The position numbers and the translations under genes were made by a program. DNA of 37,890 bases from a virus (Duplodnaviria; Caudoviricetes), in the IMG/VR virus record IMGVR_UViG_3300005573_001184, positions 1 through 37,890 of that record, one strand, 5' to 3'. This document shows, piece by piece, positions 10,445 through 36,700 of this stretch. Position 1 is the stretch's first letter, and the number at the start of each line of letters is the position of its first letter. The notes under the pieces are model-generated. The model did no database searches and was not told the DNA's origin. It was given only the letters and a program-made list of their open reading frames with translations.

Positions 10445-10461
10445 GACTTCATGGCCTTACT

Positions 10462-11328: not shown

Positions 11329-11881
11329 AGAAGGCGTTTGCTCTTTGTTGGTCCTCTTCCGTTTTGGTGTGGGTCATACACACGCTCCGGTTCGGCCCGA
11401 GCCTAACGACCTTCAGGCCGGTTGTATCTGGCCATTCGTGCACTCGGTGGATCCAGCGAACGCATGTCCTGTGCAATTTCGGTTGCCAATCAGGCCAATT
11501 CACCCAGTCTTGGACGGTGCCGTTTCGAAGAAGAACCGTGTTCCGCCTCGGCAATTCGACGATGTCGCAGTCGCATAGCACAAGGATTTTAAGCGCGGCC
11601 CACAATTCTGGCGTCAGATTTTCGTCTGTGTCGATGTGAAGGATCCACCCCGGACGCGCACATTCAACCGCGAAATTTCTTTGCCCGGCAAAATCAGCGT
11701 TAAGCGGTCTTTTGATGTATTTGGCGAACCCCTCCTTGTATCCCTCGATTCCGTCTTCTGCGCCTTCATCAAGAACGACGATGGCTTGGTCTATCCATTG
11801 CTCAGCCGTATCCATCATCTGTCTGAACTGCTCTGGTTTGTATTTGGCGATGCACACCAATGTCAATGCAGGCGTTTGCAT
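11288..11881 (-). CDS. Glycosyltransferase family 2 (WaaE/KdtX-like)
   Basis: DFAGQRNFA, WILHIDTDE (DxD), WPDWQPKL, VHE. Confidence 0.85.
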   Translation of the reverse strand: MQTPALTLVCIAKYKPEQFRQMMDTAEQWIDQAIVVLDEGAEDGIEGYKEGFAKYIKRPLNADFAGQRNFAVECARPGWILHIDTDENLTPELWAALKILVLCDCDIVELPRRNTVLLRNGTVQDWVNWPDWQPKLHRTCVRWIHRVHEWPDTTGLKVVRLGPNRSVCMTHTKTEEDQQRANAFYDTFEYHRKLVAS

Positions 11882-12417
11882 ACGAACAACCTAGTCTTTC
11901 TGAGGATTTGAATTCTATCCTTGGCTTGTTCGGCGAACATGTCTATTGCGACCTTCGGACAATCCGACTTTTCGTTGTGCCACGTATAATCATCGGCAAT
12001 CACTATTCCACCGTTACGTACGACGCGATACGCCTCGGTCAGGTCATGGATCACGTCGAAGGCTTCGTGGCTGCCATCTATAAACACCACATCGTATCTT
12101 TCGCTGTCCAAACATCGCCATGCTTGCCATGCATCCATCTTGTACACGGTAATGCGATCGGCATACTTGGCGGTGTTGGCACTGAACCTTGCCAATAGGA
12201 AAGCCGTGTCCAAATCCGATTGGTCAGCGCCGCCCTTGAAGTGATCAATCGCAACCAGTTCTGCCATCGGACAGTGCTGCATAAACCATACCGTTGACCT
12301 TCCCTCGAAACTTCCGACCTCGACGATTCTCAGCGCGTTGGTAGGCACGACAGCAGCCATCTCTGATTCGATGTCCGCGAACCAATCGTACCTGAATGTG
12401 TTGGGCGTAAAGTTCAT
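11863..12417 (-). CDS. Class I SAM-dependent methyltransferase (Methyltransf_24-like)
   Basis: VEVGSFEGRS, AIDHF, VFIDGSH, GGIVIADDY. Confidence 0.88.
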   Translation of the reverse strand: MNFTPNTFRYDWFADIESEMAAVVPTNALRIVEVGSFEGRSTVWFMQHCPMAELVAIDHFKGGADQSDLDTAFLLARFSANTAKYADRITVYKMDAWQAWRCLDSERYDVVFIDGSHEAFDVIHDLTEAYRVVRNGGIVIADDYTWHNEKSDCPKVAIDMFAEQAKDRIQILRKTRLFVCKRLH

Positions 12418-20847: not shown

Positions 20848-22038
20848 ATGAAGGAATCATGCATTCCGCATCCAGCTAATGCTCGGTTCAACATCACGCG
20901 GCCTGAGTATGTTCTCATTTGCCGGAACGACCGTTGCGCCGCGTGCCTGCTCTCGTTTTTCGAGTACTGGCATAATATCAAGCTTGAGCATGCGAAAAAA
21001 GCCGCGCGGGCTAACGATATCGCAGAAATGCACGGAGATGCTCGCACACAGGACGAAAGCCTGTGGCAGTTCCACACGATCAAAGAAATGGAGCTCGGCA
21101 TCGCGTACATGTTTACGCAAAAACCAATCTCAAAGGCACTATCGCTTCTCTGCGACCTTGGGTTCATCGTCCGGGGGCGCAACCCGAACCCAAGGTACAA
21201 GTTCGACAGAACGACGTGGATAATGCTGAAGCCGGAAGCTGTAACGGCTGCACTTGAGAAAGTTTATCCGAAGATGGAGAACTCCGCAATGCACGACGGA
21301 AATACGCCTCACCGTGAGGCATATACGCCTCACGGTGAGGCATATCTCCTTGACACTGACGTCGCGCAAAGTCCTTGTAAGTGCACGGAAAATGAAGCAC
21401 TTACAAATGACGAAAAAATCGAAAATCCGGACAAGATTACTTACAAGATTACTACGGAGACTACTCTCCCAGAGAGAGAGCGAGAGGCGGAAACGGCGCC
21501 TTCGGCGCCAGAACCGGTAATAGCGCTTCCAGATGCTAGGAGCTACTGGAACAGAACCATGCCAGAACAAACAGAGATTCCTAAAGGCCCTTCTGACGAA
21601 GAAATCCAGAGATGGGCAGAGGATGTAAGAAAGAACGGTGCAGACTACACCGACGATGAAATTAAGTCCGCAAGAATACGTTGCCGGCTTGACCAATGGC
21701 TGTGGCGCGGCAGGCCGTGCGCGGATTGGCGGCTGATGCTTGAGGACCGGATCCAGGTCATGAGGAACACATTCGGCAAGTTTGGCGGTTCAAAGCCGTC
21801 GAACGGGTCAAACGGGAACGGCAAAGAGAAACCGATGTCGCCATACCTGATGTACAAGCTCAGGGACGAGCTTCGGGAAAAGTTGGACGAGGTTTATGAG
21901 CAGCTCAAGTGCGTGCAGGATGAAGACCGCAGAAGGCCGTTGCTTGAGCAAAAGGAGAAGCTTCGCAAGCGGATTGAGTCGCTCGAAGCAAAACTCGAAG
22001 CCGCGGCAGTCGGTGGCTCCGACGAATCGGATGGTTAA
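20848..22038 (+). CDS. Replication initiator / replisome organiser (winged-helix N-terminus)
   Basis: 396 aa; RNPNPRYKFDRTTW wing, KITYKITTETT linker, internal DNA repeats, AAGGAAAGGAAG RBS, near DnaB. Confidence 0.75.
   Translation: MKESCIPHPANARFNITRPEYVLICRNDRCAACLLSFFEYWHNIKLEHAKKAARANDIAEMHGDARTQDESLWQFHTIKEMELGIAYMFTQKPISKALSLLCDLGFIVRGRNPNPRYKFDRTTWIMLKPEAVTAALEKVYPKMENSAMHDGNTPHREAYTPHGEAYLLDTDVAQSPCKCTENEALTNDEKIENPDKITYKITTETTLPEREREAETAPSAPEPVIALPDARSYWNRTMPEQTEIPKGPSDEEIQRWAEDVRKNGADYTDDEIKSARIRCRLDQWLWRGRPCADWRLMLEDRIQVMRNTFGKFGGSKPSNGSNGNGKEKPMSPYLMYKLRDELREKLDEVYEQLKCVQDEDRRRPLLEQKEKLRKRIESLEAKLEAAAVGGSDESDG
21303..21465. repeat. Iteron-like repeats inside the initiator gene (candidate replication origin)
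   Basis: Palindromes GCCTCACCGTGAGGC (21306-21320) and GCCTCACGGTGAGGC (21327-21341) at a 21-bp period; inverted repeat TTGTAAGTGC-N12-GCACTTACAA (21375-21406); ACAAGATTACT twice (21431, 21443). Confidence 0.7.
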
Positions 22039-22059
22039 CCGAACCCACAGGCTCTGCAA

Positions 22060-22590
22060 ATGACTAGCCGAATACTTCAGCTCTTGCAGGAACGATACTC
22101 GCCAGAACGTGGCTGGATTCTCATACCGGAGCTGCGGATTGGAACCGGGTTCGGCAAGGACAAAGAACAACGTCTTGACGCGTGGGCAATCTGTTGCTGG
22201 CAAACAAGAGAACCGGACGGGCCGGCAATCGTTCGGCTGTCGGTGCACACTGTAGCCTTCGAGATCAAGATCAGCCGCAACGATGCGCTCCAGGAGTTCC
22301 GAAACCCCGACAAGCGGTGGCATGCACATGGTATAGCACACCAGTTCTTTTTCGTAGCACCACAGGGCGTAATAGAAAAGGAATGGCTTGAGTCCGACGA
22401 AGGCCTGCTTGAACTCCGCGGAGACAGGCTCGAGTGCATCAAACAAGCCGCTGTTAGGCCTATCGGAATGCCGCGCTGGACGTTCGTCGCGTCGATCGTG
22501 AGAAGGCTTGCGAACAGCGGCTCCACGCCCAGCAGAGCCGCCGACGAAGATCAGAAACCAGGCGCAGCATGTACACCCTTGGCTGACTAA
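22060..22590 (+). CDS. MmcB-like PD-(D/E)XK nuclease
   Basis: ELRIGTG...RLDAWAI...AFEIKISRND...QFFFVAP...GLLE. Confidence 0.75.
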   Translation: MTSRILQLLQERYSPERGWILIPELRIGTGFGKDKEQRLDAWAICCWQTREPDGPAIVRLSVHTVAFEIKISRNDALQEFRNPDKRWHAHGIAHQFFFVAPQGVIEKEWLESDEGLLELRGDRLECIKQAAVRPIGMPRWTFVASIVRRLANSGSTPSRAADEDQKPGAACTPLAD

Positions 22591-22844
22591 GGAATTACAC
22601 CTTGTTCGCCCGTTGTTAGTTGTCGATGCGAAAAAAGTGTGACGCGAAGTTCACTCCTGGAAAGGCGCAAAAAGCGAAGGCTTCGGACCTGCATCAAATG
22701 AATGTAACACAAAATCCACCGCCAAGAAAGTGCAAAAGATTGAAAATTTCGCGTTTTTACCGTGGCGTGCATAGGACAGTTGAACTCGGCGACTCAAGTG
22801 TTTGGTGCGGGAGCAGTGCGTGAAAACAATTTGCGAAATTGCAC

Positions 22845-22874
22845 TTGACAGGAGAGCGCGTGGTGTGTTATTGT
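22845..22874 (+). promoter_or_regulatory. Putative promoter of the accessory operon
   Basis: TTGACA-N18-TATTGT with TGn extended -10, 14 nt upstream of ATG 22889. Confidence 0.55.
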
Positions 22875-22888
22875 GCAGCAGAAACAAT

Positions 22889-23341
22889 ATGAGCGAACAA
22901 CGTAGCAACGATGATGTGCAGACCGGGAAACAAAACCGCGATTGTCCGACGCAGGAAGCAGTAACGGAAAGCGAGGCGAACTCGCTGGTGGCCGACTTCT
23001 ATAGTTCGCTGCGTGCAGAGACGATCGTGCGCGTCAGTAACGGAGAAGCGCGGATTCTGTTTCCATTCCGAGACAGGCACAGCTACGCAGTTGAAATCCT
23101 AATTAGACGCGCAGGCGGTGAGTAGCTGCTGGACGACGCGGGCACTACATTCATGCGCCTGGACCACGACGTCGGCTGCGCTCGCTCACCGAGATTTGTA
23201 AACGCGATCGTGTTGCTGGCGCGGCCTTACGACGTGGATTTCGACGGCGCCGTGCTCAAAACGAATTCAAGCCCTGGTCAGGTCGTTCGCAGGATGCGGG
23301 ACCTGCTCGAGGCGATATTGGCAGTAAACGCAATGGTATGA
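22889..23341 (+). pseudogene. DUF1828-like gene interrupted by an in-frame TAG at 23123-23125
   Basis: The two ORFs share a frame. Joined they read RILFPFRDRHSYAVEILIRRAGGE*LLDDAGTTFMRL...LLEAILAVN, resembling the DUF1828 PF.D...i.i....y.l.D.G.T..L pattern. Confidence 0.6.
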
Positions 23342-23556
23342 GAACAAAGGCGAAGGATCAGACTGAGTCATCGCACCAGAATGTTGGTGCGGGGTTGCTC
23401 ACGAGAACAGAGCTGGCTCGCGAGCTTAAAATCAGTACGGCTACGATAACGCGGCTCGTCAAGCAAGGACTGCCGCACATTCCAGTCGGACCGCGCTCAG
23501 TGCGGTTCGATTTAACTGAAGTGGTGGCGTGGCTCAAAGAAAGGATTAGAGCATGA
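23338..23556 (+). CDS. Helix-turn-helix DNA-binding protein (excisionase/AlpA-like)
   Basis: LLTRTELARELKISTATITRLVKQGLPHIPVGPRSVRFDLTEVVAWL. Confidence 0.85.
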   Translation: MRTKAKDQTESSHQNVGAGLLTRTELARELKISTATITRLVKQGLPHIPVGPRSVRFDLTEVVAWLKERIRA

Positions 23557-24119
23557 AGACCCCATTGTTTTTCCCGTTCAGGTACGATTTGGCGATTGAG
23601 TTCGTCTCGCTCACATTGGCGCGTCACGGCAGGCAAAGGAGGATCGACGAGATCGCTGTGCTGGCATACCTGTGCGATCGCGTAGCCATTGCGCGGATGA
23701 ACAGGCCGATCATCGGCGGGCACTACGTCGCGACCCTGGATGGTCCCATGATCAGCGAAGTTTACGACATGCTTGACGCTGACACCATAGAGTTTCGCGT
23801 GCCGTACGCTGATCTGGAGCGGCCGTTCGCCAAACAGGACCTCTCAGTCAAGTTGTTGTGCGATCCGGACAGACAGGATCTCTCGGAAGAGCAATTTGCC
23901 GTAGTTACCGACGTCGGGGACAGTTTCGCTAACATGGCAAAGCATGAGCTGGAGAATTGGTGTGCGGAGAACTGTCCCGAATATGGTGACCTGACAGTAT
24001 CTGAGTTTACGCTCATCAGGCTCGACCGTGTGGTGGCGATTCTTGGGAAAACGAACAGGGAAATTGCAGAGATTACGCGGAAGGCCAACGAGCTGTCACC
24101 GTTGCCTTTTTTGGTTTAA
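23553..24119 (+). CDS. Panacea/SocA (DUF4065)-like antitoxin-domain protein, copy 1
   Basis: LAYLCDR..IARMNRPIIGGHYVATLDGPMISEVYD, LSEEQ...V, ELENWC..NCPEY. Confidence 0.75.
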   Translation: MKTPLFFPFRYDLAIEFVSLTLARHGRQRRIDEIAVLAYLCDRVAIARMNRPIIGGHYVATLDGPMISEVYDMLDADTIEFRVPYADLERPFAKQDLSVKLLCDPDRQDLSEEQFAVVTDVGDSFANMAKHELENWCAENCPEYGDLTVSEFTLIRLDRVVAILGKTNREIAEITRKANELSPLPFLV

Positions 24120-24134
24120 CCCGAACCCTGCAAC

Positions 24135-24722
24135 ATGGCAACGTCAATATCATTCCCGTTCAACTTGGACAAGGCTGTATCAGTGATGTGCAATCTGCTT
24201 GGTCGCTCCAAGGTGCCGGTTGACATCAACAGGCTTGTTACGATGCTTTACCTGATTGACAGGCACGCAATCGCACGGCGCAACTTTCCCGTGATCGGTG
24301 GCTCATATTACTCTACCGAGAGCGGGCCTGTGATTGGCGAGGCGTACGAAATCGTACTGTCTGAGGCTGCGTTCGGACAAGACGGGCTCCTGAACAGGTG
24401 GATTGCGCGCGACCTTGTCGGTTGGTGTGTGAAGCTGCAATCCGAATATCTGCCTGGATCGCTCGGCGGAGACGACATTCACATCGTGGATGTTGTGTAC
24501 AAGGGCTGGTCGGATTTGACTGCGCATGGGCTGCGCGTCTGGTGCAAAGAGCATTGTGCCGAGGGCATGCCGTACCAGGAGCCATTTGTGAAGATCGACC
24601 TTGAAAAGCTTTTCATGGTGCTTGGCAAGACGCCTGACGACTTTGGTGCGGTCAGGGAAAGGCTTGTTCATGGCATTCTCGCCGGTTCCACGCTGGCTCA
24701 AATGACAAAAATTTCTTCTTGA
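24135..24722 (+). CDS. Panacea/SocA (DUF4065)-like antitoxin-domain protein, copy 2
   Basis: FNLDKA...MLYLIDRHAIARRNFPVIGGSYYSTESGPVIGEAYE; clear paralog of the preceding gene. Confidence 0.75.
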   Translation: MATSISFPFNLDKAVSVMCNLLGRSKVPVDINRLVTMLYLIDRHAIARRNFPVIGGSYYSTESGPVIGEAYEIVLSEAAFGQDGLLNRWIARDLVGWCVKLQSEYLPGSLGGDDIHIVDVVYKGWSDLTAHGLRVWCKEHCAEGMPYQEPFVKIDLEKLFMVLGKTPDDFGAVRERLVHGILAGSTLAQMTKISS

Positions 24723-25746
24723 CAGAACTCCGGTTTTATGTTCTTTTTTGCGCGTGTATGACATACAGGTCTGGCGAAACGAGCCAAGGGAAGAACGGCA
24801 CAGCAGGTGCCGGCAGCCGGAGGCTTTTCTCGCTGGACTCACTTCTTATCGCTGGACCATTGGCCTCTTCTTTGGCCATTTGCGGAGCGTTGGCTTGCGT
24901 CCACCCAACCACACACATACCCTTGACACCGGCATCCTCCTACGTTCCGCGCATGACCGCGCGCTGTGCAGAACATCCGGAGCGCATGCACAGCGAGCCC
25001 GTGCATCAGCACGTTCCATTGGGCTCCCTTCCGCGGTGCTCCGGCGAGATTTCCTTGGGTGATGAACCCGCCGCGGGACAGGGTCTTTCTGGGATTCTTT
25101 CTTCCCTGTCCCGCCTTGAATTTTCCCATGGTACGGGGATATTCGTGCCAGTCGCAATGGCAGCGACAAGCCAATATCAGGCGTTGCCACCGGCGTGCTC
25201 AAGGTATCGATTGATACCATCGCCGGCCAGTTAGACCGAGGCGAAGCGAGCTGAATGCTCCGTAGGCCAGCCGTAGGGCGGTAATATCGGCCCTGGAAAA
25301 TCAACAAAGCGATTCCGTCCGGCCACGCAAGTGGAGAACCGGCCCGCGTCAGTCCTGCCCGGCAGGAAGGCTTTCTTGGTACCGTCACTAAGACGGCGCG
25401 CTTACCGCTGACCGCAGTGTGTCTATGAGCTGATACCAAGTCTGGCTTGCCAAACAAGCGGCGTACCCAACATCAACACGCCCCACCGCCAACCACAACC
25501 GGCGGGGCGTAGCGCCTTGCACACCAGCCCGCCTGCCAGTGCAACCCCGCTTCTCCACCCCGCCAAGCTCTCCCCGTTCCTTTCACCACGGAGTCGCCCG
25601 CACAGCCTCGCCGCACCGCCCGTTATTTTGCTGCGCCGCCTTTGCTTTTCTCCCCGCTTTCCTTCCCGGCGCCAGCACTGCCCTGTGGAGGTTTTCCCAG
25701 CTTCGCTCCGCCCTCGGCGGTGGCCCCTTCAACGCTGACGGAGGCT

Positions 25747-25980
25747 GGGGCCCCGGGGGGGTGGGGGCGTGGGGGCCGGGGGTCTGGCGCGGCGAAAGAG
25801 ATTCCCTACCGGCTGGGCTGGGCGAGCGGGCAGGGCGACCGGACCGACTGGGCGACCGACCAAGTGGCCGGGCTGAACCAGCCGGGCTGGTGGACCTGGC
25901 GGAGCGACTGACGGAGCGAGTGACCAGGTGACCGGGCTGGTGACTGGGCGCTGGTGGTGGCGACCGGGCCTGAGCACCGG
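25747..25980 (+). repeat. G-run cluster followed by degenerate GAC(C/T)GG-type short repeats (candidate packaging/terminus region)
   Basis: G7-T-G5-CGT-G5-CC-G5 at 25755-25782, then many GACCGG/GACTGG/GGGCTGG units. Confidence 0.5.
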
Positions 25981-26073
25981 CGCTGACCTGGCGCGCGCAT
26001 GGCCAAGCGCAGCCTGTGGAGCGCAGGCGCTCAATGCGCCAAGCTCCAGCGGCAGGAGCACTGCGCTGCAGCA

Positions 26074-26457
26074 CTACGCTCCTGGCGCTGCGGGCGATCC
26101 AGGCTCTGACTCTGGCTCTGGCGCCGGCGCTGCAGGCAATGCGGATGGCGTTGGCGCTGACTCCGCCGCCCCGGGCTCTACCAGCTCCAGCAACTGCATC
26201 CGAGCCGCTAATGCACGGTTCAGATGGCGGTAGGCACGCTTTGAGACCTTGGACGGCACCCGGACTCCAGGCAATGGGCGATTCATGGCGATGCGCTCAC
26301 GCTCGGCGGCGCAATCCCAAGCTTTGACCAGCTCGGCCACAGCATGGGATTGAGCTTTATCCGGTTGGCCATCAATGCTTTGGGCGAGTGCAAGCGCGAG
26401 TCGATAGACTTCGCGGCGGAGCGCTTTAGCTTCGGCGGCGGTGTAAGACGCACCCAT
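26074..26457 (-). CDS. Hypothetical helical protein, possible terminase small subunit
   Basis: 127 aa from MGASYT. Helical core (AELVKAWDCAAERERIAMNRPLPG) with a P/A/E tail. Same strand as terL and next to the G-rich repeat region. Function is inference only. Confidence 0.5.
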   Translation of the reverse strand: MGASYTAAEAKALRREVYRLALALAQSIDGQPDKAQSHAVAELVKAWDCAAERERIAMNRPLPGVRVPSKVSKRAYRHLNRALAARMQLLELVEPGAAESAPTPSALPAAPAPEPESEPGSPAAPGA

Positions 26458-26629
26458 AGTTTGGGGCAAGACTACCACAGAACCGACGGAAAGGCAAGCA
26501 AGGCCAGTTGGCATGGACGGCGGATTGGAAGGCGCAGGAACGCAGCGCAACGGCGGTCAGGTCTCTGGACGTCCGGCGACGTCCGGGCTGATGCGGTAGC
26601 AGCCTGGGCTTGGGCTTCCCGGCTGCGGC

Positions 26630-26721
26630 ATGCGTGATTTTCACGCATTGTGGTTGATTTTCACGCATCGCAAAGCGTTGGTGCGCAGAGGCTTACGGAA
26701 GTATGCGTGAAATTCACGCAT
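26630..26721. promoter_or_regulatory. Three palindromic operator/UAS sites ATGCGTGA-N3-TCACGCAT
   Basis: Perfect copies at 26630-26648 and 26703-26721; degenerate copy at 26650-26668. Confidence 0.75.
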
Positions 26722-26775
26722 TTCGGCTTTAGGCGCCGGCAAGGCAAAAAATCTACGATTTTGCAAGTCGTTGGC

Positions 26776-26788
26776 CATCAAGGGGTTG
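26776..26788 (+). promoter_or_regulatory. IHF-like binding site
   Basis: CATCAAGGGGTTG versus consensus WATCAANNNNTTR (1 mismatch), between the palindromes and the -24/-12 element. Confidence 0.45.
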
Positions 26789-26815
26789 GCGCCACAACCA
26801 AAGTAGCGCAAAAAC

Positions 26816-26831
26816 TGGCATGGCACGTGCT
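26816..26831 (+). promoter_or_regulatory. Sigma54-type -24/-12 promoter
   Basis: TGGCATGGCACGTGCT versus TGGCACG-N4-TTGCW; GG and GC correctly spaced. Confidence 0.65.
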
Positions 26832-26844
26832 TTTTTACCTGCTG

Positions 26845-26890
26845 CCTTGCCCGAAACGGCGCCCGGGCAGGGTCAAGTGAACCTGGCGCC
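26845..26890 (+). ncRNA. H-type pseudoknot motif II, copy 1
   Basis: Stem CCTTGCCCG/CGGGCAGGG, loop AAAC-GGCGCC, linker with TGAAC, distal GGCGCC, then AGGAG RBS. Confidence 0.6.
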
Positions 26891-26906
26891 ACAGGAGAAA
26901 GGAAAA

Positions 26907-27644
26907 ATGAACGAATCGCAACTTATCCGATTCAGGGCGGTCATCAGGTCGCTCAGCGAATCTACGGCGGTCACACTGACCGCCGAAGGGCTGGTCGCCC
27001 GCGTTAGTGGGCGCTGCTCGCCCTATCGCAGTCACCGAACGGTCAACCACCACTGGGTGGACAAGAAGGAAGGCTGGCACGCCGTCAACAATCGCTATCA
27101 GATAGTAATCAATCCTCCCTCGGAACTCGACATAGTCCCGATGTTGGGCGGGACGCATCCCCACCATAAGCTGCGGTGGGAGCGGCATTTGCTTCCACGC
27201 CCACTCCTGGAGCCGTTGCTCCAGGAATTCACTAGGTGGATCGGGGTTCGGTTTCCCCAGTTCCCACCGCTTGTGTCCTGCGCGCTCCCGGTGCCGGAGC
27301 TCGCGATGTTTACCGGCGGCGGCAAGCCGGTCTTCTGCTTCCAGTCAGCAGACTGGATCCACAATGAGTGCATTCAGGGCGAGGGCTGGCGCGCTTATCG
27401 CGCTGGAGACGAAACGCCGGACGATTGGCCGGTAATTGTTCCACCGGCAAACTTGCCGGGACTCGCAATCCTCGCCGGCGGGTGCCCCTCGGGCAACCCA
27501 ATCCAGTCGCCACACGGGTGGTACGACCGCCCATGGTCGCTGGTCGCAGTGAAACGTCCCGACGTGGACATCATGTCGAAGGCGGGGAGTGCCACCAACC
27601 TGCCTCTGGGCCGGTGGTGGATCACGGTCGATGACACGCACTGA
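26907..27644 (+). CDS. Hypothetical early protein, 245 aa (Trp/Pro-rich)
   Basis: ATG 26907 after AGGAGAAAGGAAAA. Confidence 0.75.
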   Translation: MNESQLIRFRAVIRSLSESTAVTLTAEGLVARVSGRCSPYRSHRTVNHHWVDKKEGWHAVNNRYQIVINPPSELDIVPMLGGTHPHHKLRWERHLLPRPLLEPLLQEFTRWIGVRFPQFPPLVSCALPVPELAMFTGGGKPVFCFQSADWIHNECIQGEGWRAYRAGDETPDDWPVIVPPANLPGLAILAGGCPSGNPIQSPHGWYDRPWSLVAVKRPDVDIMSKAGSATNLPLGRWWITVDDTH

Positions 27645-27650
27645 ATCTCC

Positions 27651-27688
27651 AGGACCGGCGGACCACAGCCCGCCGGTCCTTCTCGTTT
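27651..27688 (+). terminator. Terminator-like hairpin
   Basis: AGGACCGGCGG-N8-CCGCCGGTCCT then TCTCGTTT, 6 nt after the stop codon. Confidence 0.5.
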
Positions 27689-27689
27689 G

Positions 27690-27745
27690 CTGACCCTCGG
27701 CGCGGCGCCCCGGGCAACCGGGGTGCCGGGCCGGCGATCAGCCGG
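27690..27745 (+). ncRNA. Repeated structured motif I, copy A
   Basis: CTGACC-CTC-GGCGC-[GGCGCCCCGG GCAA CCGGGGTGCC]-GGGCCGGC-GATCAG-CCGG. Confidence 0.6.
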
Positions 27746-27820
27746 ACAAACGCGGTTACCTGCGCAAAGATCGGCCGGGCACAGCGCAATTACTTGCGCT
27801 GTTGCTTGCGCAGAGACGCA

Positions 27821-27863
27821 CTGCCCGCAAAGGCGCCCGGGCAGAGCACATGAACTAGGCGCC
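27821..27863 (+). ncRNA. H-type pseudoknot motif II, copy 2
   Basis: CTGCCCG-CAAA-GGCGCC-CGGGCAG...TGAAC..GGCGCC then GGAGG. Confidence 0.6.
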
Positions 27864-27881
27864 GGAGGAAAGGGAACAAAA

Positions 27882-28244
27882 ATGAACACTGGGTATAAGT
27901 TGGTTCGGGTGTACAAAGGCAGGAGATACAGCATGGCTTGCCCCCGTCAAGGGGAAGTCGAATACGAACCGGGGAAAGTGGTGCGGTCCCGCCCCGGGTG
28001 CGGTCCGCTTGCAGTGTTTGATTGCGAACAAGATGCACGCAGAGCATTCGACGCGTGCAGAGAGATGCACCTGGAGATGTGGCGGTGTGAGTACACTCGG
28101 ACCAAACGCCGGTTGATGATGCCGGACCGCAAGGTTTACCGGCTCTGGACGCGGTGGCAGTATTTGGTATGGGGGCCACCGCTGCCGGTGACACCCGGCA
28201 CCGACTATGCGGTGTCGGTGCGGTTGGTCGAGCGGATCGCCTAG
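27882..28244 (+). CDS. Hypothetical early protein, 120 aa
   Basis: ATG 27882 after GGAGGAAAGGGAAC; distant paralog of 30813..31355. Confidence 0.75.
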   Translation: MNTGYKLVRVYKGRRYSMACPRQGEVEYEPGKVVRSRPGCGPLAVFDCEQDARRAFDACREMHLEMWRCEYTRTKRRLMMPDRKVYRLWTRWQYLVWGPPLPVTPGTDYAVSVRLVERIA

Positions 28245-28264
28245 CCCCTCCACGGTCAGCGGCG

Positions 28265-28321
28265 CTGACCATCGACGCGGTGCTCTGGGCTGACCGGAGC
28301 ACCGGGCCGGCGGTTAGCCGG
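28265..28321 (+). ncRNA. Repeated structured motif I, copy B
   Basis: CTGACC-ATC-GACGC-[GGTGCTCTGG GCTGA CCGGAGCACC]-GGGCCGGC-GGTTAG-CCGG. Confidence 0.6.
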
Positions 28322-28364
28322 ACAAACGCGCAATTACTTGCGTGGTTGCTTGCGCAGAGACGCA

Positions 28365-28409
28365 CTGCCCGTAAAGGCGCCCGGGCAGGACAGAGTGAAC
28401 CAAGGCGTC
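28365..28409 (+). ncRNA. H-type pseudoknot motif II, copy 3
   Basis: CTGCCCG-TAAA-GGCGCC-CGGGCAG...TGAAC...GGCGTC then AGGAG. Confidence 0.6.
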
Positions 28410-28423
28410 ACAGGAGAAAGAAA

Positions 28424-29407
28424 ATGAGAACGATCACACTCAATTGCAATTCAGTCCTCGAGGGCATAGAGCTCCTCGAGGGTAGCACCCAGCTCGTAAT
28501 CGGGCTGGGCGAATCCGGGCGCGGGCGGCGGTTCACCGCCGTCCCCGTCCCGGGAAACAGCCGGATCCAGTGGATCCGGCATCCGGGCGAGTATGCTCGG
28601 CTTGTCTTTCCCAATGGGGCAACGAACTGGCCGGTGCCAGTTCGTGAGACCCACAACACCACCGATGGTTCCCGCTGGGAACCCGTCGTCGAATTCCGCG
28701 GCTGGGTTCTGGCCGCGGGACAAGCGGACAGCAACGACCTGCTGGTCCGGATCCCGGACCAGTCAGGGTTCCGGGGCTCGTGGTCGCTCGAGACCACGGG
28801 CCAGGTCATTCGCCTGGCGGAGGGCTTCTCCGCCCAAGGCGATGCGGGGAGAATGGGCGGCGGCCCGGACGTTTTGCTCCGGGTCAGTCCCGGGGCGGTG
28901 ATCACCATCCGCCGATCCGGTCGGCTCTACGGCAAGCCGGCCGTAGGCGTGTGGCGCTGGAACGGCGCCAGCCTCGAGCGGCGCGTCGAGGTGGTGGACC
29001 CATTGGGCGCGGGCGCTCCCGAGTGGGGGCGCGGGGAGCCCAAGCCGATGGCGAGCCAGTTCGCCCTCGGCGGGGGCGACTCAATCCAGACCGGCACCGC
29101 CGAGCAGTGCCGGGCCTACTTCCAGGCCGAGCGAGAAAGGATCGCTCGGCTGATCTCCGACTGGCTTGCGGGCGAATCGGCCCGCAAAGCCGAGGCCGAA
29201 CGGCGTGCGGCTGAAGAGGCCGCACGCAAGACGGCTGAAGAGGCAGCCGCTCGTGCGGCGGCTGAGGAAGCCGCTCGCCAACGCGAGCGCGAAGTTCGCG
29301 CCGCTTGCCAGTTCGCCGGGATTACCCCGGCGATATTCGCCGCCATGTCGCCGAAAGAACAACGTTTGGCGGTCCATCGGGCCCGGCTCGCCGGGCTCCT
29401 CAAGTAG
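28424..29407 (+). CDS. Hypothetical early protein, 327 aa, with C-terminal A/E/R-rich helix
   Basis: ATG 28424 after AGGAGAAAG; Gly-rich beta-type N-terminus, EEAARK-type helical repeats. Confidence 0.75.
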   Translation: MRTITLNCNSVLEGIELLEGSTQLVIGLGESGRGRRFTAVPVPGNSRIQWIRHPGEYARLVFPNGATNWPVPVRETHNTTDGSRWEPVVEFRGWVLAAGQADSNDLLVRIPDQSGFRGSWSLETTGQVIRLAEGFSAQGDAGRMGGGPDVLLRVSPGAVITIRRSGRLYGKPAVGVWRWNGASLERRVEVVDPLGAGAPEWGRGEPKPMASQFALGGGDSIQTGTAEQCRAYFQAERERIARLISDWLAGESARKAEAERRAAEEAARKTAEEAAARAAAEEAARQREREVRAACQFAGITPAIFAAMSPKEQRLAVHRARLAGLLK

Positions 29408-29415
29408 CCACAATC

Positions 29416-29455
29416 GCCCGCGGGAATGCCATGTCCTCGCGGGCAAACCTTTTTG
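29416..29455 (+). terminator. Terminator-like hairpin
   Basis: GCCCGCG-GGA...TCC-T-CGCGGGC followed by AAACCTTTTT. Confidence 0.4.
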
Positions 29456-29458
29456 GGA

Positions 29459-29514
29459 CTGATCTCCGACGCGACGTCCCGGTCATCCGGGACGCCTGGC
29501 CGGCGATCAGCCGG
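29459..29514 (+). ncRNA. Repeated structured motif I, copy C
   Basis: CTGATC-TCC-GACGC-[GACGTCCCGG TCAT CCGGGACGCC]-TGGCCGGC-GATCAG-CCGG. Confidence 0.6.
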
Positions 29515-29594
29515 GGCAACCCCGCGGTCAGTTGCGCAGACCGCGGAAACACGAACCAGCCGATAGCGCAGTCGGCACCGGAAAATATGGAAAA

Positions 29595-29984
29595 ATGAGC
29601 ACGCTAAATCTAACCCAGCATGTGGCAACGCCCCAGCAGATCGCTGACGGTGTTGTGGAACCGTCAGACGAAACCAAACAGCGCATCAAAGCGCTGTTAA
29701 CGTTCGAGGAAATTCCGAAGTGCGATGAAGTCGAACGTCGGGCAAACGAACTGGCCAGCATTGCCAAGGCCAGCGGCCACGCCAACGCCCTTATCGGAGG
29801 GGCGCCGTGGTTCATGGCGCCGTTGGAACGGGCGCTTGTGTATGCCGGCATCATGCCGGTGTACTCGTTCTCGCAGCGTCGGTCGATCGAGCGCATCGAC
29901 GACGCCGGGAAAGTCATTAAATCGACAGAGTTCGTTCACATCGGCTTCATCCCGGTGTGGGGAACGTTCCAACGCGGACGGTAG
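29595..29984 (+). CDS. Conserved phage protein resembling Csx20-type ring nucleases, 129 aa
   Basis: LNLTQHVATPQQ...ALIGG...PVYSFSQRRSIE...GKVIKSTEFVHIGF. The CDS is solid; the family resemblance is from memory. Confidence 0.6.
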   Translation: MSTLNLTQHVATPQQIADGVVEPSDETKQRIKALLTFEEIPKCDEVERRANELASIAKASGHANALIGGAPWFMAPLERALVYAGIMPVYSFSQRRSIERIDDAGKVIKSTEFVHIGFIPVWGTFQRGR

Positions 29985-29986
29985 CC

Positions 29987-30187
29987 ATGCGCGACAAGAT
30001 CGAATTGATCGTGGCGCTCGATACGCTTGAGGATGGCTTGCGCGAACGTATCGGCGCACGATTGCCTCCGGAGAACGTGCCGCGCAAGGCAGCGTTGCGG
30101 GCAATCAAACGACTTGCGCGAGACCAACAGGAGCTCAACAGAGCCCTCCAGGTCATGCGCAGAATGATCGCGAGATACGAACAATGA
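29987..30187 (+). CDS. Hypothetical coiled-coil protein, 66 aa
   Basis: ATG 2 nt after the previous stop; ATGA overlap with the next gene. Confidence 0.65.
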   Translation: MRDKIELIVALDTLEDGLRERIGARLPPENVPRKAALRAIKRLARDQQELNRALQVMRRMIARYEQ

Positions 30188-30381
30188 AGGCCAAGATCAT
30201 GATGATACTCGAACGCCGGGGCAAGTGGTATTACTTGCCTCAAACGATTGATGCCAGCCCCGGCCAGAAACTACCGAACGGCGACGTGATCATCGCCGTC
30301 GGCAACACCCGCCGCCAAGCGGAGATTACTTGCCGAATGCACAATGGACGCAATAGGAGGAAACATGCACAGGCACCTTAA
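30184..30381 (+). CDS. Hypothetical protein, 65 aa
   Basis: ATGA-coupled ORF in a tight run of small genes. Confidence 0.6.
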   Translation: MKAKIMMILERRGKWYYLPQTIDASPGQKLPNGDVIIAVGNTRRQAEITCRMHNGRNRRKHAQAP

Positions 30382-30586
30382 AAAATTAGTTGACACAGCG
30401 CGAAAACACGGGTATTATGCACCCGTGAAAGAGCACAATAAAATCATTCAGGAGATTGCGGATGACCTGTACCGGCACCGCAATGCGGAGGAAGCCTTAG
30501 ACTGCGCCATCTGCGATATGCTGCGGGAAGCAATCCGCGTGCTGGCACAGATCGAGGATCAACAGCAAAAACAGGAGACAAAATGA
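30365..30586 (+). CDS. Hypothetical helical protein (alternative leaderless GTG start at 30425)
   Basis: GGAGG RBS before ATG 30365; ATGA overlap with the next gene. Confidence 0.6.
   Translation: MHRHLKKLVDTARKHGYYAPVKEHNKIIQEIADDLYRHRNAEEALDCAICDMLREAIRVLAQIEDQQQKQETK
30390..30418 (+). promoter_or_regulatory. Near-consensus sigma70 promoter
   Basis: TTGACA-N17-TATTAT with upstream TTAAAAAATT. Confidence 0.65.
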
Positions 30587-30816
30587 GACTTTCAATCAAT
30601 TGGTATCCGACGCGGTCGTTCAACATGCCCGTCGGATGCAGCACAAACGATTTAAACCCGGACTATCCCTGTCTGGGCTGCGGGCAAATGACCTGCAGCG
30701 AGTCCGGATATTGTCCGGACTGCGAGGACGTTCGCTGCGGGCACTGCATGCGCCCGCTGGATCCGGACGGATTTTGTCCGAAATGCGATGAACCACCAAT
30801 GGAGGATACACGATGA
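30583..30816 (+). CDS. Small double zinc-ribbon protein
   Basis: CLGC, CPDC, CGHC, CPKC; AGGAG RBS. Confidence 0.7.
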   Translation: MRLSINWYPTRSFNMPVGCSTNDLNPDYPCLGCGQMTCSESGYCPDCEDVRCGHCMRPLDPDGFCPKCDEPPMEDTR

Positions 30817-31355
30817 AATCACGCAAAACACAACACGCCTTCAAAGCTTTCAGCTTTGATGGTATGAATTACTTTTCGTTGTCGATGCGGTGGCCCAACA
30901 GGTACATGTACCGGCTGGAAGAATGGAACGTGCCAGATAAATGCTGTGGACCGTTCTGCGTCACACTTCACGAAGCAACTGCGGTTCAGCTTGCCAAGCA
31001 AGAAAGTATCCGGGCAGCAACGCAAGTATGGAAGGTTGAATACGCCCCATCCAAAGAACAAGCAATGTGGGTGCACACCGGATTTAGAACCCGGTACAAT
31101 CCTAAAAAGTTGCCTGCTGGAACGGTGCTAGCAAGCGGCATACTGCTTGTAACGCCATGCTCGCCAATATTCGGCGCCGAATTCCTGCAATATCACCAAT
31201 GGTTCCGGGATAACTGGAACGCGGCACGCACCTTTATCGACCCCGCCTGTATTGCAGAACACGTAGCGGAGCGAATGAGCAGGACGTTAGGCCACCAAAT
31301 ACATCCGACAAGGATTTTAGAGCTCGTAGAGGATTATCTTAGTCGTTGCCTGTAA
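30813..31355 (+). CDS. Hypothetical protein, 180 aa
   Basis: GGAGG RBS, ATGA overlap; N-terminal part resembles the 27882..28244 product. Confidence 0.72.
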   Translation: MKSRKTQHAFKAFSFDGMNYFSLSMRWPNRYMYRLEEWNVPDKCCGPFCVTLHEATAVQLAKQESIRAATQVWKVEYAPSKEQAMWVHTGFRTRYNPKKLPAGTVLASGILLVTPCSPIFGAEFLQYHQWFRDNWNAARTFIDPACIAEHVAERMSRTLGHQIHPTRILELVEDYLSRCL

Positions 31356-31392
31356 TCTACTAGTTTGTAAACCCTAAAGACAAAGGAAACGT

Positions 31393-32718
31393 ATGAGCAC
31401 AGAAACCAACAATGAGCAAGTCGCACTAACGAAACCCGAAACGCAGCTGCCTGCTCCTGGACCGAGTATGGCGGTTGAAAAAGCGAGCGATCAGCAAGTG
31501 GCGCCAGCGGCGGCGCCGCCGGCTGATCCGCTCGAAGCCCGCGCCCGCGCTGTCGGCGAACTGTCGATCAGCGGCGTGGTTAAAGCGTCCACCCTGAAAC
31601 TGACAAAGCGGGAGAATGATGAGCTGACGGCGGATTTCCCAGACGAAGCGATCGAGTTGGGCGCTGGCGGAAACCCAACGTTGTTGTACATAAGCCATGC
31701 TTATCTAAGACAGCGCCTTAATAAGGTGCTTGGGCTCGGTGAAGCCGTCTTCATCGGACTCAAGCATTGGGCCGAAGAAAGCATGCAGAAAACGAAGTAC
31801 GGCATGCGCAAGGTAGTCCGCATCTATTACCAAGGCCAATTATTCGTGCGGGGCGTCATGGTCGGTGAAGGACTCGGGGACGCAATCTACTACCCCGATA
31901 ACGCCTCGCAGACGTACTCCGATTGTTTTGAGGCCGCCAAGAGCAACGCTTTCAGACGGGCCTGCAAGCACTTCGGTGTTGGTCTCCAGGTCTGGTTGCC
32001 AGAATGGATTGCTGGTTGGAAACAGCGGCACCCGGACAAACTCGCCGCGGCGTACGCCAAGGCGGGAATCCCGCCGACAGACGAAGACAAGGCTATAATC
32101 GACGCGTGGCGCGCTAAGCAGAAAGACGTCGTGGCTCATCCGGTTCAGCCGGTGGCAGAGCAGCCTGCGCAGGAAACTCCAGAAGAAAAACGGCAACGCT
32201 GGATAAAGATGTGCCTTGAGGCAGCTGGCGGTCAAAAGGCTATTGTTGAGGAAGTCCTGGAACTCATGGGCAAGCTCGAGCCGATGCAGGGGCTCGATAA
32301 CTTGCCGCTCGACGCTGTACCGAAAACCAAAAAGGAAGCTGATGCTATCCTCGAGGGCATTCGGGCACAGTACGAAGCCATCCAGACCGGGCTCGGCAAG
32401 GCGGATCGCGCCGAGCCTCCTGCTGAGACCGCGCCACCAGACGTTTCGGGCGCGCCAAGCCATGGCGATTCTGAGGTCATCCTCGAGGGAGCGCTGGCTA
32501 AGCTCTTGAAGAAGCCGGCAAAGAATGGAGGCATGCGCTATTCTGTCTGCGTCGAGCGCGAGCCCGGCGAACAGGGAGAATGGGCGGCAACGTTCGACCA
32601 ACAAGACGGTGCGCTGCTCGAATCGTTGCACGAGGGAACGCACATCAAAGTCCGTTGCGTCCACGGAAAGTACGGGCTGACCATTATCAAAAAGGGGATC
32701 ACCGTGGTCCAGCAATGA
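31393..32718 (+). CDS. Rad52/Mgm101(Sak)-like single-strand annealing protein with C-terminal extra domains
   Basis: YISHAYLRQRLNKVLG...EAAKSNAFRRACKHFGVGLQVW.PEWIAGWK; OB-like C-terminus. Confidence 0.8.
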   Translation: MSTETNNEQVALTKPETQLPAPGPSMAVEKASDQQVAPAAAPPADPLEARARAVGELSISGVVKASTLKLTKRENDELTADFPDEAIELGAGGNPTLLYISHAYLRQRLNKVLGLGEAVFIGLKHWAEESMQKTKYGMRKVVRIYYQGQLFVRGVMVGEGLGDAIYYPDNASQTYSDCFEAAKSNAFRRACKHFGVGLQVWLPEWIAGWKQRHPDKLAAAYAKAGIPPTDEDKAIIDAWRAKQKDVVAHPVQPVAEQPAQETPEEKRQRWIKMCLEAAGGQKAIVEEVLELMGKLEPMQGLDNLPLDAVPKTKKEADAILEGIRAQYEAIQTGLGKADRAEPPAETAPPDVSGAPSHGDSEVILEGALAKLLKKPAKNGGMRYSVCVEREPGEQGEWAATFDQQDGALLESLHEGTHIKVRCVHGKYGLTIIKKGITVVQQ

Positions 32719-32870
32719 TTTACGTGTGCCGAGCGGACGTGGCCGGGGAGCCTCCACCCCATCGCCTCATGCACTCCCATCGGTCTGGTAATCTGCGAAC
32801 CCACCACGCCGTTGTCTCCTGCGGCCTCTGGTGGGCGGCACACAAATCCAACGTGGAGAATGGCATATGA
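32715..32870 (+). CDS. Small hypothetical protein, 51 aa
   Basis: ATGA overlaps with both neighbours. Confidence 0.4.
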   Translation: MIYVCRADVAGEPPPHRLMHSHRSGNLRTHHAVVSCGLWWAAHKSNVENGI

Positions 32871-33658
32871 ACGAAACACAACATTGGTACAAACCGGACG
32901 GGACGCCCATGCACTTCGTCGAGCTTAAGACACGTGCTGGAACGCGTCCGACCACGATACGCGACGCGCGCCTTCTCGGGCTTTACCCTTCTGTGACGAC
33001 CGTGCTCAAGGACGTGCTGCGAAAGCCGGGCCTGGAAAGATACTTCGTCAGACAAGCTGTTCTGGCAGTTGCCACGGCGCCGGACATTCCTGGCGAATCG
33101 ATCGACGATAAGATTACGCGCGTGCTCGAGGTCGAGCGACAGCAGGACCAAGAGGGTGCACAAGCGCGCGACCTTGGGTCACTGGTGCATGAACTAATCC
33201 ACTCACATTTGATGGGGAAAGATTGGGGGCCGGGCGTTGACGAGCTCCCAGACGGACCAGCGTACCTTAAAGCGGCAATGTCCGCTATAGAACAGTTCGG
33301 CAAGGCAGTCGCTTCCGAATTTGTAGTGATCGGCCCCGGATTCGCCGGCACCGTGGACTTGCTGACAGAACGTGACGGTGTCAAAACCGTCATCGACTTC
33401 AAGACCTGCAAAGAACTTCCAAAAGCGTCATGGCCAGAGCATCGCTTGCAACTAGCCGCCTATGCCTCGCGCATCGGGGGTGTGACTCAGACCTGCAACG
33501 TGTATCTCTCAACGACTTGTCCAGGCGGCGTCATTCCTTGCGTCAATGAAAACTGGCAAAAGGATTACGAGGTCTTCAAGAAGGTGTTCGACGTCTGGTG
33601 CTGGATGCAGAATTACTATCCGGCGCCGAAACCTGAACAGCAAAGCAATGGAGCGTAG
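32867..33658 (+). CDS. PD-(D/E)XK exonuclease, partner of the annealase
   Basis: YPSVTTVL, GSLVHELI, FAGTVDLL, VIDFKT, LQLAAYA. Confidence 0.88.
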   Translation: MNETQHWYKPDGTPMHFVELKTRAGTRPTTIRDARLLGLYPSVTTVLKDVLRKPGLERYFVRQAVLAVATAPDIPGESIDDKITRVLEVERQQDQEGAQARDLGSLVHELIHSHLMGKDWGPGVDELPDGPAYLKAAMSAIEQFGKAVASEFVVIGPGFAGTVDLLTERDGVKTVIDFKTCKELPKASWPEHRLQLAAYASRIGGVTQTCNVYLSTTCPGGVIPCVNENWQKDYEVFKKVFDVWCWMQNYYPAPKPEQQSNGA

Positions 33659-33715
33659 CATGCACGAGCAAGAGCTGTTGATGGCAGCCTACATCGTCCT
33701 GCTGCTGACGGCGTA

Positions 33716-36700
33716 CTACTTGGCTTCCAGACGCTGAGCGTAGGCCTGCTTATCCCACTGCTGGCGTGTCATTATCATCGCGCGTTCGCGCAGGCGCGCC
33801 ATGACCTCGCGGACGCGCGCTTCCTTTTGCTCCGGTCGCTTGCTGTCGAATCCCTCCCGTTTCAACTGCGGCAGCAGGTATTTGCCCATCAGGTCGCCCA
33901 AGTTCCGCAGGTACATCTCTCGAAACTTGTCTGGCATCAAAATGTCCACCGCGCTTTTGCCGCTCCCAAAGTGGATGGTCGGGTTGTAGCCGCCGAGGTC
34001 GAGTTGATACGAATCAACAAGGTCGCGGACTTCGGGCGGTGCGGCTTGTCTCACCTCTCGAACACGGTCGAACTCAGCTTGCCGGCGTTTGCGTTCGAGG
34101 CCCGGCGTACGCTCAAATTTCTTGGGCGCCGTCACCTGCGGCAGCGCCTTGCGATACACCTCCGCCATGCGCGCGATAGGCAGTTCATCGAACAACACGC
34201 CGTACTGCTTGCGCGCTATGGCGTTCTGTTTTTCAACGACGTCTTCCCAGTACTTCTGGCTATAGACGTTCAACCCCAACGGCGTGAGCGCGCCGGCTGC
34301 AACCATCGCCGGCATGGTGTCTTCATCGTACGCCTCGCCCATGGACACAATGCCAAGTGGCGTTGCCCGGCGCATGATTAGATCTACCAGATTGACCTTA
34401 CGGCCAAGGTAGTCCTCGCCAATGGCAAATTCCCAAGGTCCGCTGACCAACGGCCCGGCGTGCCCCCAAAGCCACCGGATAATGGGATTGTCAATGCCAC
34501 CCTCACGGATCGATTTGCCTCGTCGCTCCCAGTCGGCGAGGCGCATGCCCAGCTTCAACCAACTGAGTATGACGTGGCTAAAGCCGATGTGGAACGAACC
34601 CCAGCGCGTGCGGACGATGACATCGAAGTTGCCTTTCGAGAACCGCCGCATGGTCTCCTCAGGCGATGAACCTTGGAGCAGGTCAGTAACGAACGCCAGC
34701 CCAATCCAACTGATCATCATGGTCGTGACAGCCTGTCGGGCGTGGGAAGCAGTCGGCGCGCTGGCAAAAATGTTCGCCAAAGCGTTCGCGCTGGCGACGT
34801 AGTATCTCGGTGCCAGCATTAAGATCGACGCTACGTCGCGTGCGCCCCGGCTCCAACCCATCAGGTCAAGCCGCGCTTGCCCCAGCAGGTTGCGGAGGTC
34901 CTCGAGCCCGCGGAAAGCGTTCAGCCTGCCTTGGCTGTCGTGGTAGGACTCACGCATCGTCTGCCACATGGTCAGGGCAAGGTAGTCGAGCGTCGCGGAA
35001 AATCCAGCGCTGCTCCGCCGGAACGCCTCGCCAAAGTACGCCGCTTTCGTGAATATATTGCTCATTCGCGCGGCCTGCAGGTATTCGATCGGCTCGCCCA
35101 GCGGGAACCCCATTTCGGACATTTCTCTGGCGAGCTTATCCCAATCCTTGCCCCGCTTCAGGAGCTCATCCAGGTAGTCAGGGTTCCTGAAGATCGCGTA
35201 GAACCCAAACGCGCATGCCTTGAAATATTCTCCAATCCGACCGCGTACCAGAAGCCAGGCTGCGCCCAGCACAGCAAGCGTCGCGTTCTGCGACACGTCA
35301 AGCGATAGCATCGCAAGTTTGGACGCGTCATTCGCCTCCAGGAACGCCTTGATTGTCCCACGGCGCTCGGCTGATACCCATTTGACGATTTTCTTCGCAG
35401 TCTCATAGTCGTAGAAGCGCTGGCTAAACGCACCGCGCTCGGGCCGGTAAAAGCCCGGCGGTCCAAGCTGCGCATGCTCCTCGATCGCCTCGAACTGCGT
35501 TGGGTACTTCTCCTTCAAATCACTGTCCAGCTTCCGGTAGGCCTTCTGCGCCGCTTTGGCCTGCTCCGGTGAAGTGGCGTTCTCAATTGCGCGTCTTGCG
35601 TCAGCGAGCTGCGGGAACGCGCTCTCGATCAATTGTCGTCTATAGTCCTTGACGGTCAGACCCTGCAAGGACGGCTCGCTCAGGAGCCGCTTGTTTATCG
35701 CGGTATCGTACAGACTCCTTATCTCGTGTGCTATCACCACGCGCAAGTCCGACGCATACTTCACGCCAGACTCAATGGCTCCGACTTGCGTTGGACTCCG
35801 GCGGAACCGCATGTGCGTGCCCACAGCAGACGGCACCGCTACGATTGGCACGCCGGCACGCGGCGCTGGCTCGAACAATGCCAACCGCGGGAAATGGACG
35901 ATAGTCCCAAGCGGCCCGCGGTTCTCCATGTTCACATCCATTACCTCGCCGGCCCGCTCGACGCCCTCTTTCTCCGCCAGATACCTGACCAATCCTTCAA
36001 TGTCGTTGGCGTACTGGATGGCAAGCTCGCTGATTCTCTTTGGCAACGGAAACAAGTTTGGCGACCGGAGGTGCGCCTCGATTATGTCGCTGGCGATTTC
36101 CCCGAGCTTGTGTTCCTTGATGAAGTCGTCAAAATTTCCGCCCTCGGTGAGAGCGTTGTAAACTTTGCGCGCAGCGGCTAACATTTCAGGATTGTAGTTG
36201 CCTTTCTTATCTGGCCCGAACGCGGCTGCAAGCTCACGGTACTTGTACGCCATCCACTGCGCGTGCCCGTTCACGATTGACTTCATCATGTTCGCCGCCG
36301 ACAAGGCAAGGTCGGCAGGATGCATGAAGACGCCCATAAACCGCCCGGGCGAGATCAATCGCCCAAGGACCGGAATTCGCTCGATGCCGCGAGCGTAAAT
36401 CTCCGATTTCAAGTCGTGCATGGGCGGCAAGGGTGGAAGGTCAAGACCGGTCAGCGGCAATGGCCCTCCGGGCGGCTTTGGCCCGGCTATCCAGCCTTTG
36501 CGCTGGAGCCAACCAACGATGTCGCCTTGGAAACCAGCCCGGCGGAGGGCATTGTGAACGAACGCAACCGCAGGGTGGACTATGCCAAGCTGTTGTCCGG
36601 CAGTGCTGCTGGGCTGCTCCGCAACAGGACGCTCCTTGGAGGCCCCAGAGGGCGCTTCCGGTTTGGCCGGGCCCTCTGGCCCTGCCTCCGGCTTCTTCTC

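Follow-up and report, generated by a model that had tools for sequence, protein, structure and literature searches.

Three elements of about 56 nt, here called motif I, recur in the gaps between small early genes of this phage, and the question the locus raises is what they do there. Motif I is a real structured repeat and is apparently uncatalogued. Most likely, judging from modelled folds and substrate rules, it is an mRNA-processing stem.

The early-gene array and its intergenic regions

The window (the whole stretch of DNA analysed) is an entire viral record of 37,890 bases, classed as linear with an estimated completeness of 40%. By annotation, the - strand carries the terminase and virion genes, and the + strand those for DnaB, a methyltransferase, an exonuclease and a Rad52/Mgm101-like protein. 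The motif I array occupies a + strand run of small early genes, genes 1 to 4, of which the first three belong to no family: gene 1 (26907..27644, 245 aa) has homologues on hammerhead-bearing contigs, gene 2 (27882..28244, 120 aa) has a single relative at 74% identity, and gene 3 (28424..29407, 327 aa) has homologues that are flanked by hammerhead sequences in other phages. Gene 4 (29595..29984, 129 aa) is a candidate cA4 ring nuclease with a weak Csx20-like match that falls below the family cut-off (25.7 bits; cut-off 70). It has 195 related loci in viral contigs and a homologue in Rhodothermus phage RM378. Csx20 degrades cA4 and is present in five cultured phages, according to a preprint (bioRxiv 10.1101/2024.09.24.614671); going by sequence similarity, the gene 4 relatives may be a widespread anti-type III CRISPR family. 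Open frames cross copies A and B of motif I into the following genes. Since the sole gene 2 relative aligns just from the ATG on, these frames were treated as non-coding.

Motif I is confined to intergenic slots, each copy (all on the + strand) lying between a stop codon and the leader of the next gene. The copies start 20-51 nt after the stop codon and end 80-137 nt from the next start codon. Copies A and C are directly preceded by a hairpin with a U-rich tail: before A, a terminator-like 11-bp hairpin (27651..27689, +), and before C a hairpin with a U-tract (29416..29456, +) that a strain variant keeps with a different sequence. After copy A come two UUAC-loop hairpins (27751..27799, +), a degenerate tandem duplication of ~33 nt, with a single counterpart after copy B (28328-28343).

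A second repeat, motif II, is a predicted H-type pseudoknot placed directly before the ribosome site. It lies just 5' of the gene 1 ribosome-binding site (26845..26890, +) and in the leaders of gene 2 (27821..27863, +) and gene 3 (28365..28409, +, with one wobble change in the loop partner), and has a 7-9-bp stem, a 4-nt loop 1, a 6-bp loop pairing and a 13-15-nt loop 3 containing an invariant TGAAC. No match to motif II was found in Rfam or in viral contigs (pattern: 0). The array opens with gene 1, which is preceded by motif II and lacks motif I. The leader after copy C (29524-29577) holds two hairpins whose self-complementary GCGC loops could kiss.

No sigma-70-type promoter was found in 26900-30300, and four promoter-like sites were found in 22000-34000. 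Upstream of gene 1 (26624-26726 and 26815-26832) stand repeated, operator-like palindromes of the ATGCGTGA type, and the same region shows a GG-N10-GC spacing like that of the sigma-54 promoter consensus. Several other features of the window and its relatives may be recorded here. Two tandem genes for SocA/Panacea-domain antitoxins occupy 23553-24119 and 24135-24722. A 26-bp inverted repeat within the replication initiator gene (21298-21349) is a likely origin; in relative L194 a different tandem palindrome stands at the corresponding position. Adjoining the terminase, 10028-15185 is a cluster of heptose adenylyltransferase-like, radical SAM/SPASM, methyltransferase and glycosyltransferase genes. 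In a related phage (G003:C1:29000-31276) the terminase frame is 785 aa long, with an insertion of ~160 codons relative to that of the window, possibly an intein.

Array content was compared in strain contigs from two DNA runs labelled hot-spring metagenome, both covering the array region and one of them possibly the source of the record. A partial fourth variant of motif I, its left half with another central-stem sequence, is on a contig in both runs; in X2 it runs into window sequence 3' of copy C, and the 195 letters that precede it do not resemble the window. Strain joints were found at 26872>28456, 26906>27384 and 27885>29558, and there is a loose end at copy C. The joints lie for the most part at motif II and at ribosome sites, and none of those listed is in motif I. 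In the case of protein P0001, other sequence precedes gene 4, so that, together with the joints, cassette content is seen to vary.

Rod fold, covariation and homologue searches

The consensus and positions given in the earlier note hold for all three copies: A at 27690..27745, B at 28265..28321 (57 nt, with a 5-nt loop) and C at 29459..29514. Each can fold into a 24-position ladder in which 22 positions are paired and two are 1x1 mismatches (N-C and G-G); an invariant CCGG tail comes after it. RNAalifold on the three copies yields the same rod. More than 80% of its pairs are G-C. Conservation peaks at the rod foot; the central stem is identical at 13-18 of 24 positions with pairing kept, and three of its pairs change on both sides, as does one pair of the outer helix, in line with the covariation that the earlier note had described in both places. 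The exceptions it listed are also present, an A-C pair in the central stem of copy C and a C-A mismatch in the outer helix of copy A, and beyond these the middle helix has an A-C opposition in both B and C, while a C-U occurs in C. Over the three copies, 92.4% of the cells of the 22-pair rod pair (slid controls, 24-46%), and of the 22 pairs four change on both sides, four on one side and 11 are invariant. This level of covariation was reached by 16 of 500 shuffles, a count that is not a probability, and with three full sequences it is suggestive rather than proof. Minimum free energy z-scores against 300 dinucleotide shuffles were -4.3 (A), -5.1 (B) and -3.2 (C).

The fold had been proposed to be either an interrupted rod or a pseudoknot with the CCGGC/GCCGG loop. 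The rod of ~24 positions stands; the pseudoknot is not sterically possible in full by sequence geometry. G58 belongs to both pairings, CUGAYC/GRUYAG and CCGGC/GCCGG, and 0 nt would remain for the loop that has to cross the first helix; the two are therefore mutually exclusive alternatives. In isolation, as RNA, the rod is predicted to beat a two-hairpin alternative by 1-4 kcal/mol. In context, the outer helix is predicted to form with a probability of 0.84-1.0 in copy C and of 0.48-0.76 for its first four pairs in copy A. The rod of copy B is predicted at 0.00-0.03, since an upstream hairpin (28254..28270, +) takes its first six bases and competes with it. Under either outer pairing, the central hairpin has a predicted probability near 1 in A and B; in C this applies to most of its pairs. 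In every copy the 5' hexamer could pair with an alternative partner, and such partners are common in GC-rich sequence. Wobble-type oppositions, G-U and A-C, number 5 and 4 on the + strand and thus show no strand bias, so the acting strand is taken from gene direction only. Copy C folds better on the - strand.

No homologue of motif I was found outside its own phage population in any of the following searches. A covariance model run over the window gave no fourth copy, the best non-self hit scoring 14.5 bits against 84-90 bits for the training copies. A strict pattern had 0 matches in viral contigs, and a 17-nt 3' pattern had 73 loci, none with the 5' half and the rod. In metagenomes, a pattern matched at least 120 loci. 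The model was applied to 100 of them and gave a top score of 22 bits; when the 120 were folded, the best 25 resembled chance matches. Since the pattern was loose and 4 of 64 parts were scanned, this is a weak negative. Among 185,579 species genomes there were 11 loci (best, 26.7 bits), with the central stem unpaired in the eight alignments listed. The best score at 80 + 22 loci near gene 4 and gene 3 homologues was 16 bits, in an apparent coding region, and that in nine whole records (G001-G009) was 15.3 bits. Nhmmer with motifs I and II over 846 kb returned nothing under E=2, and BLASTN against phages and plasmids returned partial matches only (E at least 0.06). The nearest terminase relatives (98% and 58%) are fragments without the cassette region. 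No Rfam family matched the window at the gathering threshold, and the 12 sub-threshold matches at E<=10 include no ribozyme. We found no description of motif I in the literature, where the candidate-RNA supplements of comparative screens could hold one.

Hammerheads in the same slots of other phages

Alignments of two cassette genes served to search viral contigs: that of gene 4 gave 195 loci, of which 80 were kept, and that of gene 3 gave 22. Four IMG/VR contigs carry homologues of genes 1, 3 and 4. We applied a hammerhead descriptor to 110 loci and to the window. It detected 14 distinct type I hammerhead sites in six contigs (L216, L218, L220, L221, L271 and L286, with five tandem sites in the last) and 0 in the window; a whole-record pattern agrees. 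A type I hammerhead lies directly upstream of the gene 3 homologue in all four contigs (three by descriptor, one by repeat) and directly downstream in three of the four. Three of the 14 sites follow a hairpin and U-tract, which is the layout of copies A and C. All 3' products open with a small GC hairpin that lies 23-28 nt from the start codon; the stem and loop of the L221 hairpin are nearly those of the motif I 3' hairpin. Rfam scored three of the 14, below the gathering score; where tested, all were missed or sub-gathering.

One hammerhead phage (G005, the source of L218) is the only complete record among the four contigs with homologues of genes 1, 3 and 4. It has no terminase match with the window, which points to a shared early-gene pool rather than close kinship with the window phage. 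Its hammerheads cut 23-27 nt from the start codon, as compared with the 80-137 nt that separate the end of motif I from the start codon. Tandem hammerheads flanking prophage genes cleave native polycistronic constructs in vitro (PMC3088659). By analogy, we infer that the slot of motif I would be a place where messages are cut. The likeness to tandem type I hammerheads (PMC3088659; RF00163) consists of the slot around homologous genes and, sometimes, of the preceding hairpin and U-tract, whereas motif I has neither the CUGANGA/GAAA core nor a three-way junction and lies farther from the start codon.

Candidate roles of motif I

RNase III-type processing was the first suggestion of the earlier note, whose interpretation is partly borne out. 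The idea of mRNA cutting is supported by the hammerheads in the same slots of gene-sharing phages and by the one cutting register that fits 3/3 copies. The E. coli and Aquifex enzymes favour AU or UA at proximal-box positions 2 and 4, where G-C is inhibitory, and position 4 adjoins the cut (PMC1540722, PMC3074117). One set of proximal and distal boxes with an 11-bp helix suffices (PMC1540722), and the Aquifex enzyme is independent of distal-box sequence (PMC3074117). We scanned 32 registers of the rod (15 upward and 17 downward) by these rules. A cut after C6 is the sole register of the 32 with AU or UA at positions 4 and 2 in all three copies, position 3 being G-C or G-U, and it uses the rod's only two invariant A-U pairs. 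The match was made post hoc, and given two invariant A-U pairs we estimate a chance of ~1 in 10 for it. Above this C6|U7 register lie 23 ladder positions, including the two 1x1 mismatches, where a helix of at least 11 bp is needed. The E. coli distal-box UA/UG is lacking, as positions 10-11 are G-C or A-C and then C-G.

Since a single register fits the proximal-box rules in all copies, an RNase III stem is the best reading. We tentatively hold that motif I is a processing stem in mRNA that may be cut by host RNase III near the rod foot (C^UGA), at a confidence short of an even chance; its copies likely mark where a long mRNA would be cut into single-gene pieces. The predicted cuts, which as RNase III cuts would leave a 5'-phosphate, a 3'-OH and a 2-nt overhang, are 27690|27691 and 27742|27743 in copy A, 28265|28266 and 28318|28319 in copy B, and 29459|29460 and 29511|29512 in copy C. 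Copy B, its rod nearly absent in context, is predicted to be a poor substrate. Below the predicted cut no helix is conserved, in contrast to idealised substrates, which have 22 bp centred on the cut (PMC3867540), and the cut leaves the CCGG tail and the G-G mismatch unexplained. RNase III cutting in the middle of the rod, at the G-G mismatch, would release the 3' hairpin; it was rejected because G-C antideterminants would occupy proximal-box positions 2 and 4 in all copies.

In outline, transcription would read through the weak terminator-like hairpin, and the rod would then fold, placing the invariant A-U pairs at proximal-box positions 4 and 2 with 23 helix positions above them. After cutting, the upstream message would end in its own hairpin (at A and C) and the downstream message would begin with structure before the pseudoknot and the ribosome site. 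The distal stem would need only to pair, so it would drift with compensation. As a by-product, the motif I repeats would supply homology for cassette swapping.

Phage RNase III stems, R1.1 (an RNase III site of T7 early mRNA) and its minimal substrate, share with motif I a rod some two helical turns long that lies between genes in an early polycistronic region, a variable loop, and AU or UA at proximal-box positions 2 and 4 in one register. Motif I differs from R1.1-type stems in its share of G-C pairs (>80%), in a register at the foot with no conserved helix below and in lacking the E. coli distal-box UA/UG. The PeSL cassettes of T4-type phages (PMC2839356, PMC4122927) likewise have repeated intergenic stem-loops around small unknown genes, and, judging from the joints in the strain contigs, may share with motif I the strain-level gain, loss and replacement of genes at repeats. 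The strong sigma-70-like promoter of the PeSL cassette is absent from the motif I intergenic regions, and motif I is a long covarying rod after a terminator-like hairpin, not the terminator itself. Overall, motif I agrees with two sequence rules for RNase III substrates but departs from the E. coli distal-box rule, and it lacks the defining features of hammerheads, HDV-like ribozymes, PeSL promoters and attC sites.

An uncut stabiliser or insulator, whose rod or two-hairpin fold blocks exonucleases or binds a protein and tunes the stability of neighbouring cistrons, is unlikely. In its favour, the folds are very stable, the central hairpin is predicted to form in context whichever outer pairing wins, and a GC-rich rod gives few RNase III-compatible registers. 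A plain barrier, however, would not require conserved foot and tail sequence; A and C already have an upstream 3' hairpin, and the relatives have a cutter in the same slot.

That last observation also bears on a new class of small self-cleaving ribozyme taking the place of the hammerhead, which we judge rather improbable. In this proposal cleavage would fall near the G-G pair, within an internal loop of G-G, A-C and N-C, and the CCGG tail would refold into a protective 5' CCGGC/GCCGG hairpin on the downstream product. The slots are equivalent to hammerhead slots, hammerhead 3' products start with a short GC hairpin (that of L221 nearly like motif I's), and the invariant tail can pair with four conserved partners. 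Positive structural evidence for this suggestion of the earlier note was not found. Conserved unpaired nucleotides are almost absent and A residues few, whereas known nucleolytic ribozymes have highly conserved unpaired cores (PMC6765202). The full pseudoknot is impossible, and copy A has G in place of the A in the A-C pair. No Rfam ribozyme matched at E<=10, a weak exclusion since the Rfam gathering threshold missed the hammerheads of related phages. Were motif I to self-cleave, it would be a new ribozyme class.

Known classes were compared with motif I individually. The hammerhead core is CUGANGA and GAAA around three stems, and the intergenic regions contain no CTGANGA, with 0 descriptor hits in the window. 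The HDV-like fold is a nested double pseudoknot (P1-P2-P3-P1.1-P4) with a catalytic C; a descriptor for HDV-like and theta ribozymes, run with no positive control, gave 0 hits on both strands of the four intergenic regions, and no Rfam match appeared at E<=10. Twister, twister-sister, pistol and hatchet are absent among the 12 Rfam matches at E<=10 (Rfam scores real hammerheads weakly), and no fit to their consensus features was seen by eye.

We think it improbable that motif I acts in antitermination or as a conformational switch, be it put/nut-like or bound by a protein, and so allows polymerase through the terminator-like hairpin that comes next. The two folds are near-isoenergetic, the 5' hexamer has an alternative partner in each copy, and there are terminator-like hairpins within the array. 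But motif I is 3' of the nearest of these and so cannot prevent that termination co-transcriptionally, the prevalence of alternative partners in GC-rich sequence weakens the second point, and no antiterminator protein was identified.

Equally improbable is a DNA element, such as an attC-like recombination hairpin, a REP-like mobile palindrome or a hairpin promoter, and the earlier note's single-stranded DNA recombination hairpin is not supported. The dyad-symmetric foot, the wobbles without strand bias and the strain contig that switches from unrelated to window-like DNA at copy C would suit such an element. However, DNA parameters at 37 C favour two separate hairpins over the rod for B and C, the listed strain joints are not in motif I, no multi-copy host repeat was found among the 185,579 species genomes, and the Rad52-like protein (31393-32718) could recombine the repeats without special structure. 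Integron attC sites have extrahelical bases, an asymmetric spacer, a GTT-type box and a cognate integron integrase. Motif I shares with them an imperfect palindrome of ~57 nt just past the stop codon, and differs in having symmetric 1x1 mismatches, no extrahelical bases, no asymmetric spacer and a GTT-type box end in B only. No tyrosine recombinase (PF00589) or RNA polymerase was found in the contig, which may be incomplete. A virion RNA polymerase with a hairpin promoter was rejected because the 1387-aa protein looks like virion proteins, some of which contain LPD38, and shows no sign of being a polymerase.

If motif I is a cut site, as the RNase III reading has it, then homologous early genes, including that of the candidate anti-CRISPR ring nuclease, would be served by interchangeable cutting devices: some phages would use a ribozyme, and the window phage a substrate of a host enzyme. 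The question of why phages place self-cleaving ribozymes between early genes would then become testable by swapping one for the other.
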